NCBI GenBank assembly: GCA_052327205.1
Contig: CM126232.1
Location: forward strand, 21,948,001 to 22,012,000
Source: Somniosus microcephalus
Lineage: Eukaryota
Direction: 5' to 3'
Length of the DNA stretch: 64,000 bases
Translations under genes and position numbers: made by a program
In this document: positions 1 through 39,500 of the stretch, one piece after another
How positions within the stretch are numbered: the stretch's first letter is position 1
Layout of the letters: each line of letters begins with the position of its first letter
The notes under the pieces: generated by a model
The model's input: only the letters and a program-made list of their open reading frames with translations
Databases searched by the model: none
Told to the model about the DNA's origin: nothing

Positions 1-274
1 AATGTTTCGTTCCATCTTCTTAAAACCAGCAAAGGAGTTAACCCTTTCCACTGACAGCTGTTTAAGTTCACCAAGCAACAACTTTAATATTGCTGAATGA
101 AATTTAAAGATAGTGGACATTATTAAATTTAAGTTTCTTAATTTTAAGTTAATATTTCCCCACAGTGACAGAAGGAAAATTATGATCTGATAAATTAACC
201 CCTTGGGCTCTAAGCAGAGTCACAATGGATTATCTTCTTTCTTTTGTTATATGGAAGTTATCTTGTAAACTAAC

Positions 275-1449
275 TGCAGCACTTATGGGAATTGGATAGT
301 GGAGCAAACACGAGAAAACTTGGAACAGATACAGGCGGGGGAGGTACCCCTGTGGATTACCAACCAACAGTTAAAAAGGACCCTGACTCGCGGACATGCT
401 GGGGCGGGTACGTCCAAATGTCTCTTAAGTAGCCTCAATATGACAGTTTGTCAATTCCGAGCCATGGTACGGGTATACCCCATGCAGGTCGAATGCAAAC
501 TAGAAGGGGGGAGGGTTCCTGGGTTTAGTTTTGGTCATCCCGGTGATGATACCGGAGACACAAGGGCGGGAGGAATATCAGGTACAAAATATTGGTGCAC
601 TAAAAGATGGCATACATATATCTTCCCACAATATGTTACCTTACGCAGTGATGGTGAAAGGAAATCGGATGGGTACCAAGCTGGAAGGATGTGTCACCAG
701 ACATGCCATCATGTGCCCGCATGCAATCAGCCAAAGCCTGCAAGCCCAATGTGGTTTCAATAACACAGGCATGGAGATTAACTGCACCATGGAGGCATTG
801 GACGCAGTCTCAATGCCCACCCAGGTGGCATACGCCGGCAAAGGCGAATACTGTGTAACGACCAACTTGGAGACGTTTGAGTATGCCAATCTAACTTGCG
901 ACATCCCCAGTCCAGAGTTCTGCTTCACACCAGCAGTTCCGGTACGGATTGGACACAAGGAGTTGGTGGACATACACCAGTTTAATATTACCTCTCCAAG
1001 TGTCTGAAGACATCAAGTATGGATTATGGAACTACATCAACACCTTTGGGTATCCTATACCCCCATTGCCCGAACACCTGAGGCAGATGCAGAAGGAGAT
1101 ACAGCTCTCCCAAAAGGTGTACTATACTCTGCAACAACTGAACACGGATTTGAAGAAAGACATCGACGCGATCAAGGTGACCACATGGGTGGATGACATT
1201 TGGGACTGGGGACTAAATAAACAGATCCATCCGCGGATCCGACTGATTTCACATGTATTAGTCGTGGTGCAGTTAGTAATTGTCCTGACCTTGTTATGTA
1301 TGACATGCAGGAAATGTAAACGGACTCGGGCGAAACAAATGGTTAAAACTGCTAATGCTTGTACTGCTCCTACTCCAAGCGTTTCAGATGATGACTTCAA
1401 CAACTTGTTGGAAAAAATCAAGTGTATGAATAATGAAGCAATCGTATAA
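275..1449 (+). pseudogene. env: Endogenous retroviral env (TM/fusion subunit), foamy-/loki-like F-type, frameshifted
   Basis: Three overlapping ORFs (299-763, 531-1007, 949-1449) join by frameshifts in a G6 run at 506-511 and at ~991-993. The joined protein has G-x-x-P-x-W, LVIP...VQNIG...H...PY...LEGC...C...CG...C (spacing like spumavirus TM), a heptad repeat (LRQMQKEIQLSQKVYYTLQQLNTDLKKDIDAI), a Trp-rich MPER (TTWVDDIWDWG), a TM helix (LISHVLVVVQLVIVLTLLCM) and a Cys/basic tail. Confidence 0.8.
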
Positions 1450-1452
1450 TGA

Positions 1453-1575
1453 ATCGGGGAATGCCTAAATATTAACTTTACTCATCTAATGCACATCTGG
1501 TGCCTCGACGGGTGGCCACCCCGACAGGATTCACACCAGACCATATGCAACAAATGTGCGGCCTACCTGCAATAG
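1453..1575 (+). pseudogene. In-frame continuation of env: Cys/His zinc-finger-like (PHD/RING-like) remnant
   Basis: After TAA TGA (1447-1452) the same frame reads IGECLNINFTHLMHIWCLDGWPPRQDSHQTICNKCAAYLQ*. Confidence 0.4.
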
Positions 1576-1585
1576 CCAAAGGCCT

Positions 1586-1770
1586 GGGGCGGGGGGGGGG
1601 GGGGGAAGGTGGGGAGTATAGAACAACTTGCGGGGGGTTACAGGAAAACCTTCATCATTCGTGCAATTTCATCTGGGAAAACCTATATGTGTTTCTGACA
1701 TACTATAAACCCACCAGCTTATCACACTATCATAGCGCAGAGAGAGCACAACCTCCAACCCCGCTTTTAC
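1586..1770 (+). mobile_element. Possible polypurine tract and truncated 3' LTR of the env-bearing element
   Basis: Purine/G-rich tract 1586-1616 directly after the ORF end, then unique sequence cut off by a SINE fragment; no second LTR in the window to confirm. Confidence 0.3.
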
Positions 1771-4807: not shown

Positions 4808-5255
4808 CCATTTAGGACTGAGAGGAGGAGAAATTTCTTCACTCAGAGGGTGGTGAATCTTTGGAATTCTCTACCCCAGAGGGCTGTGGAGGCTCAGTCG
4901 TTGCGTATATTCAAGACAGAGATCGATAGATTTTTGGATATTAAGGGACTCAAGGGATTTGAGGATAGTGCAGGAAGGTGGAGTTCAGGTAGAAGATCAG
5001 CCATGATCTTATCGAATGGCGGAGCAGGCTCGAGGGGCCAAATGGCCAACTCCTGCTTCTATTTCTTATGTTCACATATCACACAGCACGGAAGGAGGCC
5101 ATTCGGCCCATCATGTCTGTGTCAGCTCTTTGTAAGAGCGCTCCGATTCGTCCCACTCCCCCCACCTGTCCCCGTAGCCCTGCAATTCTTTTCCTTTTTA
5201 ATTCCCCTTTGAACATTACTGTTGAATCTGCTTCCACTATGCTTTCAGGCAGTTT
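4808..5255. mobile_element. Two tail-to-tail CR1 3' fragments (4808-5078 +, 5080-5255 -)
   Basis: [19 protein letters not shown]...FKTEIDRFL ORF2 end on +; LPESIVEADSTVMFKGEL on -. Confidence 0.85.
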
Positions 5256-5422
5256 CAAGTCAATTGGTGACAGGATAGGGCTTGGCCTTGAGCCCGCTCC
5301 ATGACACAATGGCCTGCCCCACACACTATTGGGGCGTGAGGAACATGAGGCACTGAGGGCAACCAGGGTCCGTGGGACCCGTCACCCAGCAAGGCCTGCA
5401 GCAGAGGAGGGGAGCAGTTTAC

Positions 5423-5520
5423 CTTGAAGTCGTCCATATGCAAATGAAACTCTGGAAGCTTTGGCACTTGGAAGAAGAATATATAGCTGGACTTCAGCAG
5501 CTGGGACAGGCTCAGGTAGT
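5423..5520 (-). pseudogene. EPHX3: EPHX3 exon 5
   Basis: gttcag|DYLSLSQLLKSSYIFFFQVPKLPEFHLHMDDFK|gtaaac, 98 nt, phase 1 to 0. Confidence 0.85.
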
Positions 5521-5524
5521 CTGA

Positions 5525-5635
5525 ACAAAACAACTTGCATTTATATAGCACCTTTAATGCCACAAGGCGTTTCACGGGAGCGTTATCAAACAAAATCTGA
5601 CACCGAGTCACGAGATATTAGGACAGTGACCAGGC
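5525..5635 (-). mobile_element. L2-type LINE tail abutting the exon 5 acceptor
   Basis: Reverse complement ggtcactgtcctaatatctcgtgactcggtgtcag...gctatataaatgcaagttgttttg matches the L2 tail at 4647-4750. Confidence 0.75.
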
Positions 5636-5659
5636 CTCGGAGAGGGTGTCGAGGCCTTG

Positions 5660-6125
5660 ACGAGGGTACCAGGGATGAGGGACTTCAGTTATGTGGAGAG
5701 ACGGGAGAAGCTGGGGTTGTTCTCCTTAGAGCAGAGAAGGTTAAGAGGAGATCTGATGGGGGTGTTCAAAATCATCAATGGTTTTGATCAGAGTGAATAA
5801 GGAGAAACTGTTCCTAATGGCGGAAAGGTCGGTAACCAGAGGACACAGATTTAAGGTGATTGGCAAAAGAGCCATGGGTGACACGAGGAGACATTGTTTT
5901 ACACAACGAGTACTGATCTGGAAAGTGCTGCCTGAAAGGGCGGTGGAAGCAGATTCAATAGTAACATTCAAAAGGGAATTGAATACTTCAAGGGAAAAAC
6001 AATGTACAGGGCTACAGGGAAAGAGCAGGGGGCTGGGATTCATTAGCTAGCTCTACCAAAGGGCTGGCTCAGGCCTGATGGGCCGAACGGCCTCCTTCTG
6101 TGCCGAATCATTCTATGATTCTATA
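5660..6125 (+). mobile_element. CR1 LINE 3' fragment
   Basis: TRGHRFKVIGKRAMGDTRRHCFTQRV...LPERAVEADSIVTFKREL plus (attctatg)n tail. Confidence 0.85.
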
Positions 6126-6200
6126 GTTTGACAGTACATCCATCCAGCCACGCGCTGTCCTCCCATCATTACTGGAAACTAACAGAAGCCTTCAGCTCAC

Positions 6201-6329
6201 CTTGGAACACCACTGGGTGTGGCGCGTTCATGATGATCAATCTCTCCACCAACTCCGGATTGCAAATCGCCAAGTTCCAAGCGAGGACACCACCCCAGTC
6301 ATGTCCCACCAGAATACAGCTGCGGTGCC
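6201..6329 (-). pseudogene. EPHX3: EPHX3 exon 4 (nucleophile motif)
   Basis: ttttcag|GHRSCILVGHDWGGVLAWNLAICNPELVERLIIMNAPHPVVFQ|gtgagc, 129 nt, phase 1 to 1. Confidence 0.92.
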
Positions 6330-6939
6330 CTGAAAACACAGCAAACCCTTCCGATTGGTGAGTTAGGCTCATTTGTAGAGCGAGAGGTCAGTCCAACTCG
6401 GAATGTGCTCATTGTATTCACAGACTTTGCACCAAGTAGACCACACAACAGGGCTAAAGCGCGAGGACACAACCCCTGTACTGATCAGTCGCTGAAGACT
6501 CAATGTACTGTTTGTGTTGTTGGCCAAACTCAGCCAGGATGGCAATAAGGGGACTAGAATCGGCCTCAGCACCCACTGATTGAGGAAGGGGAAATCAGCC
6601 AAAGCTCCTGATGTATCCTACTGAGATTCAAAACTGAGATTGATGGATTTTTGTTAGGCAAGGGTGTTAAGGGCTACGGAACCAAGGTGGGTAGATGGAG
6701 TTAAGGTACAGATCAGCCAAGATTTAACTGAATGGTGGAACAGGCTTAAGGGGCTGAATCGTGTTCCTACGCTCCCCACCTTTGCAAGAGACAAGACCGC
6801 TACAAATGCTCATTAGTTGCCTGATATATAGCTGAGGAAAGTTGCGACGATGGATAAATTCAGGCGAAACCCCAACCCTGATGAGTGCGCAAATGCCCTC
6901 AGCTCTGGCGAGTCAGACCACTGCCACGTGTCAGCGTAC

Positions 6940-7098
6940 CTAGAGCGTCGATAATGTCCTTCACATCCGTCAGCAAACACTCCAGCTTGTAGTCATCGCG
7001 ACCAGGGGGTGTGTCGGAGTCCCCGTAACCGCACCAAGTCCACCGCCACCACTCGGTACTCACTTTATAACTCCCGCAGCTGGTAACGCCACGAGTAC
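6940..7098 (-). pseudogene. EPHX3: EPHX3 exon 3 (stop plus frameshift)
   Basis: tcgcag|YSWRYQLREL*SEYRVVAVDL[+1]GYGDSDTPPGRDDYKLECLLTDVKDIIDAL|gtacgc; 159 nt where the flanking phases require 158. Confidence 0.9.
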
Positions 7099-7659
7099 CT
7101 GCGACAGAAGACAGCATCCGATGAGGCAGTAACCCCACTGCCGAGGCAGCAGCTGCAACAAGGAAGGACACGCTACACATTTCGGCAGTGACAGGACTTC
7201 CACAGGAGCCACGATCAGGGAATCAGCACGGACTAGAGATCCGACCTTGGACTTCCACAGTCCTTATGGTTCAGCTGTTCCCTGGAGTAACTCAGAGACA
7301 GACGAGAAGTCCAACCGAGGTTTTACAGCCCTTGATTACTCAACTTTACAATGCACTTGACGTAAAGGTTTACACCAACTTTCACTGTTATCAGTTCATT
7401 TTTGGGGGAGAAAGTCCAGAACAGGCTCATGTGGAACATAAACACCAGCATCGACCTGTTGGACACAATGGCCTGTTTCTGGGCTGTAAATACTATTGAA
7501 TAGGCTGCAACTTGGCCACTGGTGCAAATATAGTCAAGAGAGCCACACAACACCCCCTCTCCCTCCCCAGGGCATCCTGAGGATGTGAACATTATATAAA
7601 ATCAAGTTCTTTCCTTTCATTAATGAGAAACCAATAACAAACTCAAAATACAATAGGGC

Positions 7660-7797
7660 TGATGTTCCCTCTAACTTTATTTGGCCCGCACGGCCCCTTT
7701 AATGGGCGGCGTGGCCCATTCAAAATTCCACGCACGGGCGGTTTTTCCATTTCCAGGCTAGCTCACGGGCTGCATGGGAGCTCCAGGGAACATTGCA
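7660..7797. mobile_element. Short non-autonomous DNA element (hAT-like MITE); related copy at ~35733-35886
   Basis: Terminal inverted repeats atgttccct...agggaacatt; shared core cccctttaatggg/ccccttaaagggcccgc. Confidence 0.5.
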
Positions 7798-7892
7798 TCG
7801 GGGGGGGGGAAACAAAAGACCGAAAAGTCAAATATAAAATATAAACACCAGAGGGTCCAGATGCAATAAAAAGCAGAGGGGGCAGTATTTAC

Positions 7893-7978
7893 CAAAACTC
7901 AGGAAAGCCATGGAGTAGCAACATCAGCTGCTTGCTTCTCTCCCCAGCTGCCACATAGTGAAACTGCAGCCCTGAATC
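7893..7978 (-). pseudogene. EPHX3: EPHX3 exon 2
   Basis: ctctctag|DSGLQFHYVAAGERSKQLMLLLHGFPEF(W)|gtaaat, 86 nt, phase 0 to 2. Confidence 0.92.
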
Positions 7979-8189
7979 CTAGAGAGAGAGAGAGGAGAGA
8001 GGTCAGTGACTCTCGCACAATACAACTTGCACTTACGGCACCATTGCCAAGGGTTTCAGACAGAGTGACTTCCATCTTTGGCAATTTAAATCAACATAAT
8101 CCCTGTAACTATTGGTAGGAAGAAATTGCACATGTATCATGCACATTCTGGCAAGACGTCAAACCGAGGCCCTGTCTGCCCTCTCAAGT

Positions 8190-8625
8190 GGCTGGACCTA
8201 CACTGGCTCCCGGACCAACAATGCCTCAATTTTAAAATCCTCACTCTCGTTTACAAATCGTTCCATGGCCTCACCCCTGCCTATCTCTGTAACCTCTTCC
8301 AGCCATACAAGCCTCCCAAGATCTCTGTGCTCTTCCAACTCTGACCTTCCAACTCTGACCTCTATTTCCATCGCTCCACCATTGGCAGCCGTGCCTTCAG
8401 CTGCCTGGGCTCCAAGCTGTGGAATTCCCCACCCTAAACCTCTCCGCCTCTCTCTCCTCTTTTAAGATGCTGCTTCAAACCTACATCTTTGATCAAGCTG
8501 TTGGTCACCTGTCCTGACACCTCCTTCTGTAGCTCGCTGTCAAAAATGTTCTTGCTGATGTTGCTCCTGTTAAGCGCCTTCGGACATTTTGCTACGTTAA
8601 ATGCGCTATATAAATCCAAGCTGTC
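8190..8625 (+). mobile_element. L2-clade LINE 3' fragment
   Basis: DLHWLPDQQCLNFKILTLVYKSFHGLTPAYLCNLFQPY plus gcgctatataaatccaag tail. Confidence 0.85.
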
Positions 8626-8797
8626 ATTGAATCACATCAATAGCAACTTTTGAACGAGAAATGGATATATGCTTGAAAAAAATGCAGGGCTATGGGGAAA
8701 GAGCAGGGTGAGTGGGGCCAATTGGATGGCTCTTTCGAATAGCTAGCACAGCCACGATGGGCTGAATTGCCTCCTGTGCTGTAAGATTCAATGAACA

Positions 8798-33500: not shown

Positions 33501-36500
33501 ATACAGCATATTTCTGAAAAACGATGGCAGAATCCCTTTCTAATGCTCGCAAGGCAGGGCAGAGAGTTTGCATACAACATCATGCTCCACGCACTGTGCG
33601 CCCAAGTTTCCGATAGGCAAGTTTCTCCCAGGCACAGCACCAGTTAAAAGTGCAAAGCAGGGAGCAAGATTCAGAGGGTAAGTCACGCCGGGCCATCAAA
33701 CTGAGAGCAAAATGGGAGGTGGCCATTTAACGAGGTATATAGAACAGTGGGAGGTCTGGAGGGGTGGGAATTAGAGTTAAAAACATGGATGGGTAGCATA
33801 TACATGTAGTCAAGGCAAGTAAACTGGCAATTTCTGTCAAGTTGAAAGGTACTCTAATTGCTAATGGATAATCTGTAAATTCCTCGTCAGTGAATCTTTT
33901 GTTGTTGCCCAGATACTATATTTACACCCGACATTCTGAACAACATGATGTATGAGAATTTTCAGTTCTTAGCTGATTATTACACATTTAGTTACAATTT
34001 AACGGATAGGTTTAGAAGTTAAGGGTCACGGCCACTCCCGAGAAAGTAAAACCCCAACTCGCTACAGAAAAGTATCTGAATTTTGTCTCTCCACCATCAT
34101 TAGAAGTTTACACAATGATTAAAAGTGCGCAACAAAGTATACAATTAAAAATCCTAACCAGGATAAGTGAGCACATTTTTTTTTAAAAACAGCAAACGGA
34201 CTAGGAATTGACTGCAATTCGATTGTTTCCCTGCAGTCGGACACTTGAACTGTTCCACTCAGCTGCGACTGAAGGCTTCATGAGCACAGAACCGCTTCAG
34301 GGAAAATGCAGCAGATAGCTATAGCAACAGCTCCGAGGGGAGATGGTTCCCAAGTGGCAGCCATTTCAAATCGTGGTAGCCAGGTTGTGTGGGGGATGGG
34401 AAGAGAGGGAGAGGACAGATCGACAAACTGGGTCCATTTTCACCACAGCCAGCCTGTTGAGTTGTACAAGTTGGAAAAGGTCCGGCAAAGCTTTCGCTAA
34501 TGATTATATATACAGGAAACTTTTTTTTTATCCGGCACGGACGGGACCGACGTGGTGCAGGTTCATCAAAAATTCCGGATAGCCGAACGCTATAGTAAAA
34601 GATAGAGCTGAGAGCTCCGTATAAAGCAACAAACCCTGCAGCTTCAGAACAATGGCCACAAGTTGCAAGCGTCTCTGTAGCTTAGCAACAGCTGCAGCCA
34701 CACCCTTGCACAGCAACAAATGGAGGAAGGCAAGTAATAAAAGTTACCTGCACCTACTCCTGAATTTTGCCGGTTAACTGAGATTTCCGGTTATTTAGGT
34801 GCCGGTAAATCGAAAGTTTCCTGTAATGTGATCACTGCTGTACCCGACACTCACAATGTACCAGTGTTAATAGATCCTTCACAAAACAATGCTTCATAAA
34901 GGCTCCCCCAATGCTTCAGCTGGTTAGGGCAAAAAAAATAGGTGAACCGTACAAACCCCAGGTTTGATCCAGAGTCTGTGCTGATCTCAGCGGGGGCAGT
35001 GGCAGGGGAATAAGACTGGCTCGGGTTCCTGCTCCTAATCACTATCCAGTGAATCCTGCCGAGAGTGCGCGTACGCGGTCGGGTCAGAACATGATCTAGG
35101 CTCCGGTGCAATGTTTCCCGTGGTTGAATTGTCTGGCAATGTTCACTTGTCTAGGCACACATGATTTGAACTGGGTGCATTATTCCCCACCTCCTGCATC
35201 CATTAAAATGCATCTATGCACCAGGGGGGGGAGGGGGGAGGGAAAGAGGGGGGAGAAGGTTGGGAAAAATAAAATGCTTTCAAAAATAATGATGCACTTA
35301 CCAGACACGCGAGTAGAATGGACTATACGCTGCGCCCTGTTGCATTGTACTAAAGTCACAAATACCAATTTTGTTTACCTGTTTCTTAGTCTGTACAGTT
35401 CTTGGTGGTGACTGGACGAGCGATGGAAATTGTGGCAGCGGTGGGGAATGCATCAAGAGTGGGGAGGACACATCTGCCATATGAGCTGAGGGGGGAAAAA
35501 AGGATCAAAAATCAAAACACAGTCAAAAACAATTTTCCATTGAAACAATCAGTGCGCGTGAATTTTGACTCAATTCTCTCTGGATTACAGGTGAGGTTTG
35601 TGCATGGTGGGTACGTTTTCTGCTGTATTTATTCTTTATATGTGCAAGAAATCTACAGCAGGATGGACAGCTTGCAACCAGTCATTTTTACAATAGAATA
35701 AGCCCTATTTTCACACACAAACATTGATAGCACCAACGTTCCCGCTAAGCTGCCAGGCCCGGGGCTGGCTTTTCAAACTTGAAATTTCACGCATGCACCA
35801 GGCTTTGAATGGGCCATGCAGCAGCCCCTTAAAGGGCCCGCGCACCCCCCCAAAAACATTAGGGGGGGGGGCGGGGGGACACTGGGTAGCACACCCCACT
35901 TCAAGGAAACTCTGTTTCTATCTCCATAGATGCTGCCTGGCCTGCTGAGCATTTACAGCATTTTCTGATTATATTTCAAGGAATCATCGTACGGTTCAAT
36001 GAATCATCGAGCAGAGGCGGCCATTTGGCCCATCGTGCCAGCTCTTTGGAAGAGCTATCCAGTTAGTTCCACTCGCCCTGCTCTTTCCCCACGGCCCTGA
36101 ATTTTTTTTCCTTTTCTAGTATTTATCTCATTCCCTTTTGAAAGTTGCTATTGATGTATTCAGATATACAAACAAGAAAATTTGAAGAGATGCCTCCCCT
36201 CCAGCCCTCCTCCCAAGTATTTCCACACATCCGTCACGCACAATTGGCAGAGTGAGGGAAGGGTTTTGTAAGACTCCTTACCTGTGGAGTAGGGGTCAGG
36301 CTTTGGCTGTCGTGGCGAGTGGTGATGCTGGATGACTTGCTGGGGTTTCGCCTGCTGGGGAGGCTGGTGCTGCGGTTGCTGTGGCTGGGGTTGCTGAATA
36401 TGGGATGGAAACTGCATAGACTGCATGTGGAGCGGCCTTGGTTGATGTTGCTGCTGCTGATGTTGCTGCTGCACCTGCTGCTGGGGTAGAGCTTGAGGCT

Positions 36501-39500
36501 GTGGATGGGGTGGAGGCTGTGGATGGGGCGGAGGCTGGGTGTGCGGCGGAGGCTGGGGGTGAGGTGGAGGTTGGGGGTGAGGCGGAGGCTGGGTGTGCGG
36601 CGGAGGCTGGGGGTGAGGCGGAGGCTGGGTGTGCGGCGGAGGCTGGGTGTGCGGCGGAGGCTGGGTGTGCGGCGGAGGCTGAGGGTGAGGCGGCGGCTGG
36701 GGGTGAGGCGGCGGCTGGGGGTGAGGCGGCTGGGGCTGGCTGTGGACTGGCTGGGGTTGGGGCTGGGACGAAGTCTGGACTGTTGAGAGGAGCGGAGTCT
36801 GATTCTGGGCCTTCTGCAGCTGCTGCAGGTACAGATGCATCTGACTGGGATGTAGGGGAATTGTGAGACGAGGCGGTGGTTCTTCCTCTTCCAGCATTGC
36901 TGGCGGCTGCGTCATCTGTGGTGGCTGTAGTATAGGCTGTGGGACCATGGGCGGGGACTGTGCAAGGGGCCGTGGCTGTTTCGGAGGTAGTGGTGCGGCT
37001 TTCCCGCTGGGTCTGGATGGCTGTTGAGGCAGACTACTGTGCAAAGCTAGAAGGAAAAAAAATCACAAAAGGTGAGACTTATGGGTTTTTTCAAACTCAA
37101 GTTCAGTATACAGTAGAATCTCATCACAAGATAGTTATGGATGTGGAAAGCCATTCGGCCCATCTAAATTTAGCCACCTAGAAAGGTCCTTGCGTCTCCG
37201 GCCTCTTGCAGCATCTAGCTATTTCTTAAATGATGCCAGGGTTTTTAATCTATCTCGATCTGGAATTCTAGTCTATACATTGATCACTCCCTGTATCAAG
37301 AACTATTTCCCGACATCAGCTCTAGATTTACCCATTACCAGGTTGAATGCGTGTCCCCCTTGTCCAACTCTTGCAATTTAAATTTAATATTTGGAACCAT
37401 GGATTTATCTTTTCCATTTCCTCAACCATCTTACACACCACTGCAAGGTCACCCCTCAGAACAGTTCCTCTCCAAGCCGAAGAGCCCATGTTTCTTCAAT
37501 CACTCATCATAACGCAACCCTTTGTCATTGGGGAACAGTTTCTGGCTTTTCACTGCATTGCTAAATTCTCCCTTCATACCCACTCCATCCCAACCTCTGC
37601 AAAGCAGAGGAACTAAACCTTAGTAAGCAGTTCTCTATTCACATTTCCCCCAAGAGACTCTGACCAGCATTGGTTAATGGGTGTGAGAAACAGCAGTACG
37701 GTGTGCAAAGGGTAAGAAGCCCATATATACAAAATCAACAGGGTAGATGCCAGTGCGCTGGTTAAGGCACGTAAATATGTACCTATCAATGACATTGCTA
37801 CATTTAGTTAGCACATGGGCACCAATACACTATGGTGAAAATAAAGGAAAAAATCATACTTAAGCCACCACACGCCTGGGTGTTTTTCCAGAGTTCAAGT
37901 GGATATAGCACAGAAATTCTACCCACCCAGCACGGAACCTTCACTGAATCCCAGTGGGAGAAAGAATGGCTACAATGCAGCTTCACAAAACCTCGAGCTT
38001 GATACTGTGCTTTACCAGAGGGCTGGCAATGAAACTGCCTGTGTGCACGCACCTGGAGGAGACACTACCGAATGCTGGGTGAGGTGAGGGGGCGAGTGCT
38101 GTTCAGGCGGTGGCGGCAAATGCGTCTGCAGCTCGCTCTGGTGAGGAAGGTGCATCATCGGCTGGCCAAAGTGGGGCATGGCGTCATAGGCATTGGTCAA
38201 CATCTGCGGTTCCATGATCGGAAGGGACGTCGGTACAAACTGTGGAGGTGATTGTTTCATCGGCGGTGGCTGCTGATGGTGGTGGTGGTGCTGCGGAGAG
38301 AAGGAAGAAATTCTTCATTAGAGAGCGTGCCCGAGTAATGAATGTTGTAATCGATAAAAGTTTTAGAAGGTTACTCATTTAATTTTAAACCCTGATCAGA
38401 CACACTAGGCTTGTGCTACCATTCAGGATGCTGAATGTATTTTCCAGTACAGGAAACTTTGCGCTATCCGGCACCCATGGGACCGAGCTACTGCCGTTTT
38501 TTTAAAAGCTCCGGATAGACCAGCGTCAATGTTATCAGATAGGAGCTTTTCATCGCAGTATCTGACCACAAACACTGTTGCTCAGCAACAGCTTGTAAAC
38601 ACTCGGCCCAGTAGCTTGGAAGCGTCTCTGAAGCTGTTGCTAAGTGACAGACGCTTTCCAGAGCCTGCCTGTGAAAAGAAAGCTAGGAGAATAAAAAAAA
38701 CACCTAACCAAAGCGGCTGCTGATTTCTGCCGTTAGATCAAAGTTGCCGGACATTCAACTTCCGGATAGCACAAAGTTTCCTGTATTAGGTTATTGAGGT
38801 CAAATTCTAAAATTTTCCCTCCAGCCCTCCTGGTCACCGCATCCAACATCTAATTGTAACCAATCTGTTCCCAGGCCTCATCCAATGCCACTTTGAGCCA
38901 GCTGCTGGCATACTGAAGTGACCCGGACAAGACAACTCCACTCCATTCCATACGCCTCTTCCTTCCCCCCCACCGAAGCAGACAGCAACTGGCCTCCAAC
39001 TTGCACATGTGCACAGTGAATGGGGATTGACCCCTCCCGAGGCCTGAAGGATCAAATCTGCACCTCCCAACTTCTCTGGTGCAGCAAACGGGCCAGTGCA
39101 TCGTACAATTGCACTACTCCAAAAACGGTCGGATTTATAACTTCGATATAGTGCGCACGGTGTGCTCAAATTTTGAAACCTTGGCCTTGGAGGGGGTTAT
39201 GTTGGAAAAGAATATAAACCTTGCTTTTAAAGATAAACTGAAACAGCAGCCATGGTGACAGTGGAGGCCACTGCAACCGTCTCCCCCAGCCTCATGGGCT
39301 TTCTTTGAGGGAGGGAGGGGAGGGGGGAGAAGATTAGAATCAGCAGGGTTCATGCTTTTACCCGATGTCCTTTAGGGAAGGTGGGGGCGGGGGGGAATTA
39401 GTTGGGTCTGGAGTTTAAATTGTTGTTGGCGGCTCTGTAGTTGAGACAGGCTAAACACCAGTCCAATTGGTTTCCCACATGACATGCTGAATAATCTGTC

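Follow-up and report, generated by a model that had tools for sequence, protein, structure and literature searches.

The window, a 64-kb stretch corresponding to C31:21948001-22012000 of a 6.4-Gb genome, opens with the remains of a retroviral envelope gene. The env remnant at 275..1449 is spread over three overlapping frames of the plus strand (269-763, 504-1007 and 895-1449), all of which match consecutive pieces of one natural 512-amino acid open env frame, L022:6879-8414, with E values of 4e-30 to 3e-107. Amino acids 124-212, 201-369 and 367-498 of that frame are matched at 64%, 73% and 59% identity, respectively, and the frame switches lie near 505-541 and near 994-1004. The original prediction that three open reading frames are joined through two frameshifts was borne out by this collinear match to a single open frame. 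The first piece (275..508) corresponds to the ectodomain that follows the fusion peptide and first heptad, both of them missing, and it includes a conserved Cys-helix and VPLW motif. The second piece (507..1004) is a beta-rich, Cys-rich core of F-type domains with four N-glycosylation sequons. The third (994..1449) comprises the second heptad, a Trp-rich membrane-proximal region with the stretch TTWVDDIWDWG, a transmembrane helix at 1243-1299 (mean hydropathy 2.7), a cytoplasmic tail and a stop codon. The Cys-rich ectodomain, heptad region, Trp-rich stretch and transmembrane helix that had been predicted were all found. The predicted lack of a CX6CC motif and an ISD was also confirmed; neither CX5-7CC nor an ISD of the LQNR..LD type occurs in any of the three frames.

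Homology to env begins abruptly at position 275, where the gene is truncated at its 5' end, and what is left lacks the signal peptide, the cleavage site, the fusion peptide and the first heptad. Positions 1..274 (plus strand) are non-coding proviral leader DNA joined to the truncated env at an internal deletion junction around 275. This DNA is 89-91% identical to that of the related copies L052 and L053 and 86-90% identical to that of L024, L031, L032, L033 and L038. A separate transposon to the left of 275 was considered and dropped, since several copies have the same DNA in the interval from primer site to env. The leader DNA extends upstream, beyond the window, to the primer site and the 5' LTR, which is split in two (C31:21936671-21937266 and 21942367-21942594), with a Gypsy-type pol between the halves. 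The last 15 bases of the primer site, TGGTGTCAGAAGTGGGAT, complement the 3' end of the genome's own tRNA-Leu(CAA). Upstream of the window, the leader DNA is interrupted by another Gypsy-type element, the repeats of which are 99.6% identical. The two Gypsy-type elements nested in the provirus occupy L021:125-3360 and 5208-8787, and the second has a 744-amino acid open frame. Downstream of env, positions 1450..1767 (plus strand) are 3' untranslated proviral DNA, 82-90% identical to that of L027, L035, L054, L055 and L056; homology to the relatives ends at 1767, just short of the polypurine tract. A search of the 64-kb window revealed no 3' LTR, and the LTR that follows in L055 had no match downstream there. 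No retroviral gag or pol is left between the primer site and the window env. Of the retroviral layout, the window copy retains the 5' LTR, the primer binding site and the 3' part of env. Lacking gag and pol as well as a signal peptide, a cleavage site and a fusion peptide, the window copy is a dead, internally deleted provirus and is unable to make a fusogen. Elsewhere in the window, a 300-amino acid Pro/Gln-rich open frame lies at 36160-37062 on the minus strand; a PDB search with it gave no match, and we take it to resemble an exon from a gene of the BET family, BRD4 for example.

The family to which the window copy belongs is large. The middle frame had at least 150 scored matches in the genome (52-100% identity, E ≤ 2.4e-47, among 16,585 candidates), and RT, RNase H or integrase sequences were located upstream on the same strand in 15 of the 25 other copies fetched. 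Family copies carry RT, the RT_RNaseH tether, RNase_H, integrase, LTR pairs and a primer binding site, the features that define Retroviridae. The LTRs of a pair are 96.9% identical in L033 (685 bp), 92.2% in L032 (575 bp) and, over a stretch of only 159 bp, 98.1% in L023. The existence of LTR- and pol-linked copies in the genome upheld the retroviral origin proposed for this env. A co-opted cellular gene, or an F fragment captured from a negative-strand RNA virus, might be suggested by the structural comparisons described below, in which most rows are paramyxovirus and pneumovirus F proteins. However, the two frame switches, the 5' truncation, the upstream LTR and primer site, the copy number and the pol linkage refute this for the window locus, and we give it practically no chance.

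A Leu(CAA)-type primer site is present in the window's own element (L021) and in L028, L032, L033, L048, L049 and L053. That of L037 differs and is presumably of the Ser type. The tRNA-Leu(CAA) was called by ARAGORN only when introns were allowed and was missed otherwise. A tandem array at G000:C19, around 72.8-72.9 Mb, consists of units of about 1160 bp with an intron-containing tRNA-Leu(CAA) gene (one unit was checked). A CCHC knuckle was detected in Gag (zf-CCHC above cut-off in L023 and L085). In L085 gag and pol are in frame and separated by a TAG codon, and pol likewise follows the gag stop in L090 and L093. The Env proteins of fuller copies and homologues have an RxKR site and, after it, a fusion-peptide-like stretch, then two heptads, a Trp-rich membrane-proximal region and a transmembrane helix, and that of L023 has a signal-peptide-like start. 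Near-identical env copies of the window subfamily also form a dense cluster within tandem-repeat DNA at G000:C40, around 20-53 Mb, which suggests segmental amplification.

A whole-library protein search returned 42 relatives of the family env. Eight of the ten that were looked up could be named, and they come from the sharks Heptranchias, Pristiophorus, Heterodontus, Mustelus and Chiloscyllium and the frogs Pelodytes and Xenopus. The named proteins closest to the window env are all from sharks, with Heptranchias first (67%), followed by Pristiophorus, Heterodontus and Mustelus. A word-indexed protein search with the env returned only two chimeric Heptranchias gene models. The shark gene models P0004, P0005, P0017 and P0030 join pieces of the family env to zinc-finger, p24, F-box and cadherin genes, and these fusions are likely annotation chimeras or exonised fragments. 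In two distant homologues, P0013 and P0033, the N-terminal region is Ig-like (UniRef label; V-set E 0.045). An ESM Atlas search with the N-terminal piece of the L023 env gave no usable match, and an Ig-like head was not seen for that subfamily.

Pfam identified no family in the three window frames, the L022 frame had no foamy (PF03408), F0 (PF00523) or TLV_coat match, and a phmmer search of PDB with one family env returned no matches. A profile built from 34 env sequences of the family had the foamy TM structure 8rm1 as its top PDB match (E 0.004), and the region of the second window piece is the source of this match. The structure model of the natural env frame had a pLDDT of 67 and a pTM of 0.43, with pLDDT values mostly between 70 and 96 in that same region. 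Foldseek searches with the model produced 49 matches at E ≤ 0.001 (best E 2e-7), and all 31 rows listed are foamy Env or the F proteins of measles virus, hMPV, RSV, PIV, CDV and henipa-like viruses, with whole-chain rmsd values of 7-37 Å. The best ten VIA rows are likewise foamy Env or paramyxovirus/pneumovirus F, with modest Z scores of 8.2-6.3, values that are near background for helical proteins. In BFVD the fold matches extended to F-like proteins of lispiviruses and baculoviruses, to feline foamy Env (2e-4) and to WEHV-1 Env (6e-4), the top match being unnamed, and the second ESM Atlas match was a weak one to an F0 cluster (0.94). The arrangement characteristic of class Ib, a furin site leading into a fusion peptide, two heptads and a transmembrane helix, was found in the fuller copies and not in the window copy. 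Taken as a whole, we predict with moderate confidence that the family env is a class Ib fusion protein, that is, of the paramyxovirus/pneumovirus F and foamy type.

The family profile was also compared with the Env proteins of reference genomes from IMG/VR. Pfam identifies L198 as foamy; L220 carries a cyclin-like gene along with a 1229-amino acid env frame, and the env frame of L109 is 1134 amino acids long. We take L220 to be WDSV-type and L109 to be snakehead-type from their layouts rather than from a database label. The hhalign value was 96.8% against L220 (E 2.7e-10, 446 columns), 85.9% against L109 (343 columns), 29.7% against the foamy L198 and 0.14% against a gamma-type env control. 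The L220 (5962-9648) and L109 (6131-9532) envs have no Pfam family and align along the whole F-type core of the family profile. The fold check proposed with the original prediction came out as anticipated in that foamy TM and paramyxovirus/pneumovirus F ranked first, but the best retroviral env profile was WDSV-type. A best match to an epsilon-type env had been named in advance as contrary evidence; it removes the foamy/loki family label and leaves the F-like fold in place. The accompanying statement that gamma- and epsilon-type envs carry CX6CC and an ISD does not hold for all epsilon envs, as PMC9967133 describes WDSV and WEHV Env as lacking the gamma-type hallmarks.

The backbone of the family was placed through its pol products. 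The window copy has no pol; its env clusters with those of L027, L035 and L036 (support 99), the RTs of which fall with teleost Pols, and its RT placement is inferred from these neighbours. In the window's subfamily the RTs are degraded and sit on long branches. In RT trees of 82, 41, 45 and 24 rows, the family RTs and teleost and shark Pols formed one clade with a support of 97-99. One of the trees left out nine near-duplicate or short rows, and others used 23, 45, 24 and 17 of about 100 RT rows. In the best trees this clade is sister to the gamma- plus epsilon-type viruses (92-97) and stands apart from the foamy references and from the genome's own foamy-env-linked RTs, the trees containing no lokiretrovirus, ERV-L/S, fish foamy-like or CmiERV sequence. 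Foldseek searches of BFVD with an RT model did not rank the named relatives usefully. The shark/teleost RTs form a distinct, deep lineage that would, by the best tree, be sister to gamma plus epsilon. The basal and possibly poorly catalogued lineage suggested originally agrees with this clade, which is close to no named reference, and the lineage may already be present in published supplements.

Were the family a divergent foamy virus endogenous to cartilaginous fish, this would account for foamy TM being the best PDB match by both profile and fold, for PFV being the best PDB match of the integrase, and for the AU test (24 RT rows) retaining a sister position to foamy viruses (p 0.22). However, other parts of the element point away from it. 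The family RT plus connection scored 280 bits with MLV and 192 bits with foamy virus (the RT core alone gave nearly equal scores, 149 and 143 bits), the best RNase H matches were MLV and XMRV, and L028 has a weak MLVIN_C match. Foamy Gag has no CCHC knuckle and foamy pol lies in a separate frame, a layout seen in L192 and L198, whereas the family Gag has the knuckle and L085 continues in frame into pol after the gag stop. The family primer site is Leu and not of the Lys type found in the foamy references L192, L198 and L229; the foamy-type Lys site TGGCGCCCAAC is not matched by the family copies listed above. The MLV-like RNase H and the hhalign value of just 29.7% with foamy env point the same way. 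Moreover, the RTs of the PF03408-positive elements of this genome group at 100% with the foamy references, on a long branch, and are only 33-34% identical to the family RTs. These true foamy-type env relics, 11 matches in all above the PF03408 cut-off, include C6:254047848-254049259, C29:10142574-10143242 and C1:403469771-403470547. We consider a foamy identity highly improbable.

That the family could be the first chondrichthyan lokiretrovirus is hardly credible. Its signal peptide, RxKR site, fusion peptide, coiled coil and transmembrane helix do match the description of loki Env in PMC7947760, and the weak F0 cluster match in the ESM Atlas is compatible with it. However, the family RT nests among canonical retroviruses, and in the AU test a position sister to all of them was weakly rejected (p 0.044; 24 RT rows, in trees without a loki sequence). 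Its motif is LPQGFHNSP, while PFGYSNSP and PFGYANSP stand in two non-canonical passages of the loki supplement, taken here as loki data. The RNase H is MLV-like, whereas that of loki groups with foamy. A basal amphibian/coelacanth RT clade was considered as a loki candidate and dropped on account of its PQG motif. Of the foamy/loki-type F-like env originally predicted, the foamy-TM/paramyxovirus-F fold persists as a prediction, while the foamy or loki identity is contradicted by RT, Gag, RNase H and primer site.

A third possibility is an ordinary epsilon-like (class I) shark ERV with an epsilon-type env and nothing more. The WDSV-type env is indeed the best profile match, the clade adjoins gamma plus epsilon in the best tree (95-97), and epsilon-like and SnRV-like ERVs of the elephant shark, reported in PMC4422223, are absent from the RT trees. 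Nevertheless, the AU test on 24 RT rows rejected a grouping of the clade with the WDSV-type RT of L220 alone (p 3.5e-6), and it did not reject sisterhood with the snakehead-type (p 0.24). The RT plus connection also scored slightly higher with the snakehead-type reference (289 bits) than with MLV (270 bits) or the WDSV-type (241 bits). The F-type fold and the env swaps would hold even if the RT lineage were already catalogued. An explanation limited to an ordinary epsilon-like ERV is unlikely, if well within consideration.

The distribution of env types over the RT tree suggested that envelopes have moved. Twenty loci were fetched by RT similarity to L037, five of them picked for a nearby TLV_coat match; 15 had a gamma-type env, one an F-type, three a second F-type, and in one none was found. 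The second F-type family can barely be aligned to the first (profile iE 8e-9 to 3e-4). This very divergent env was observed at L087:1555-3662 (minus strand), L106 and L108, with RTs 65-69% identical to that of L037. The RT of L037, which bears an F-type env, is 65% identical to that of L081, which bears a gamma-type env, and L023 and L028 share 43% identity in RT but 65% in env. AU tests rejected the F-env RTs as a single clade (p 7e-4 with 23 RT rows and p 6e-50 with 17), the env tree weakly rejected the RT grouping (p 0.04, 17 rows), and the gamma-env RTs as a single clade were not rejected (p 0.11, 23 rows). Because the env and RT trees conflict and RTs that are 65% identical bear a gamma-type env, envelopes were likely exchanged between RT lineages. 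At least one replacement of F-type by gamma-type, or the reverse, and one F-to-F transfer would follow from these trees. The direction of the swaps, as losses or gains, depends on the root; an F-type env ancestral within the RT clade would be the simpler reading, since F-type occurs on both main branches. A large, young-looking gamma-env ERV family (e.g., L081, L090 and L092), with many long open pol frames, belongs to the same RT clade. F-type, a second and distant F-type, gamma-type and true foamy envs are all present in a single genome, with the RT background of each known.

Our preferred explanation, which we regard as very probable, is that the window holds the broken 3' env of a deleted provirus of a multi-copy ERV family, the env being a predicted class Ib protein that was likely exchanged between RT lineages. 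The proviral anatomy, copy number, pol linkage, sequence motifs and tree topologies are what the data show. The ancestral Env would have entered the secretory pathway through its signal peptide, been cut by furin at RxKR and then trimerised. On triggering, its fusion peptide would insert and the two heptads would zip into a six-helix bundle around the beta-rich core, as in F. The distinct shark/teleost RT lineage would have carried this F-type env, and recombination of co-packaged genomes may have replaced it at least once by a gamma-type env and also shifted it between sublineages.

The locus itself is an ordinary, dead fragment; its significance lies in the bearing of the family on the origin of retroviral Env. 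By profile, this shark/amphibian env family connects foamy TM with WDSV-type and snakehead-type Env, and its predicted F-like nature puts class Ib on backbones that are neither foamy nor loki. This suggests that retroviruses make wider use of the F-type fusion machine than has been supposed. We propose tentatively, rating the chance as somewhat below even, that F-type (class Ib) may be the ancestral retroviral Env, kept in foamy viruses, lokiretroviruses, SnRV, the walleye epsilonretroviruses and the shark/teleost lineage, and that gamma-type would be a later replacement through repeated swaps, one of them inside the shark clade. If so, class Ib occurs inside Orthoretrovirinae and the walleye Env is old rather than recent. 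Which Env came first becomes testable through reconciliation of Env on RT trees.

Three published positions bear on these proposals. PMC11468914 places foamy Env in class Ib and the Env of orthoretroviruses in class Ia, PMC9967133 takes WDSV Env as recent and the epsilon ancestor as gamma-type, and PMC7947760 and PMC9040795 set out four scenarios for the origin of Env and prefer independent gains. Lokiretroviruses are reported from lampreys, bony fish, amphibians and reptiles and from none of three chondrichthyan genomes, the latter according to one row in PMC7947760. A vertebrate ERV analysis is announced for a separate report in 10.1101/2023.10.26.564294. No claim of an F-like WDSV or SnRV Env and no such swap was found in the literature searched, which covered parts of PMC6001957, PMC8922424, PMC4977317, PMC10699275, PMC11521997 and 10.1101/2024.03.17.585361, among others, and few subscription papers.

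Among known systems, the Env of the epsilonretroviruses WDSV and WEHV, represented by L220, is collinear with the family env over the 446 columns. The alignment starts at a Cys/Gly-Leu strand ahead of the cleavage site and takes in RxKR, the fusion peptide, the Cys-helix-VPxW segment, the beta core and the Trp-rich membrane-proximal region, as far as the transmembrane helix. ISD and CX6CC are absent in both, and the named WEHV-1 Env is among the model's fold matches. The WDSV-type L220 differs in that env identity is 19%, its env has a long tail, its primer site is of the His type, it has the cyclin gene, and its RT does not group with the family RT. The SnRV-type L109 shares an env profile match of 85.9%, the highest RT score among the references, the gag-stop-pol layout and a CCHC Gag; however, identity is 14% in env and 36% in RT, its primer site is Arg, and it lies outside the clade in the best trees. 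Foamy Env, a class Ib fusogen in PMC11468914, supplies the top solved structure and a common beta-core Cys pattern, but it has a leader peptide where L023 has a cleavable N-terminal signal-peptide-like start, and the family is non-foamy in its Gag, RNase H, primer site and RT. Lokiretrovirus Env, as described in PMC7947760, shares the F-like layout and RxKR, whereas RT position and motifs and RNase H type differ and L022 has no PF00523 match. A precedent for the proposed exchange is offered by the type-D betaretroviruses, which PMC9967133 presents as a retrovirus lineage that gained a gamma-type env by recombination; here the exchange would be between class Ib and gamma-type within one fish RT clade.
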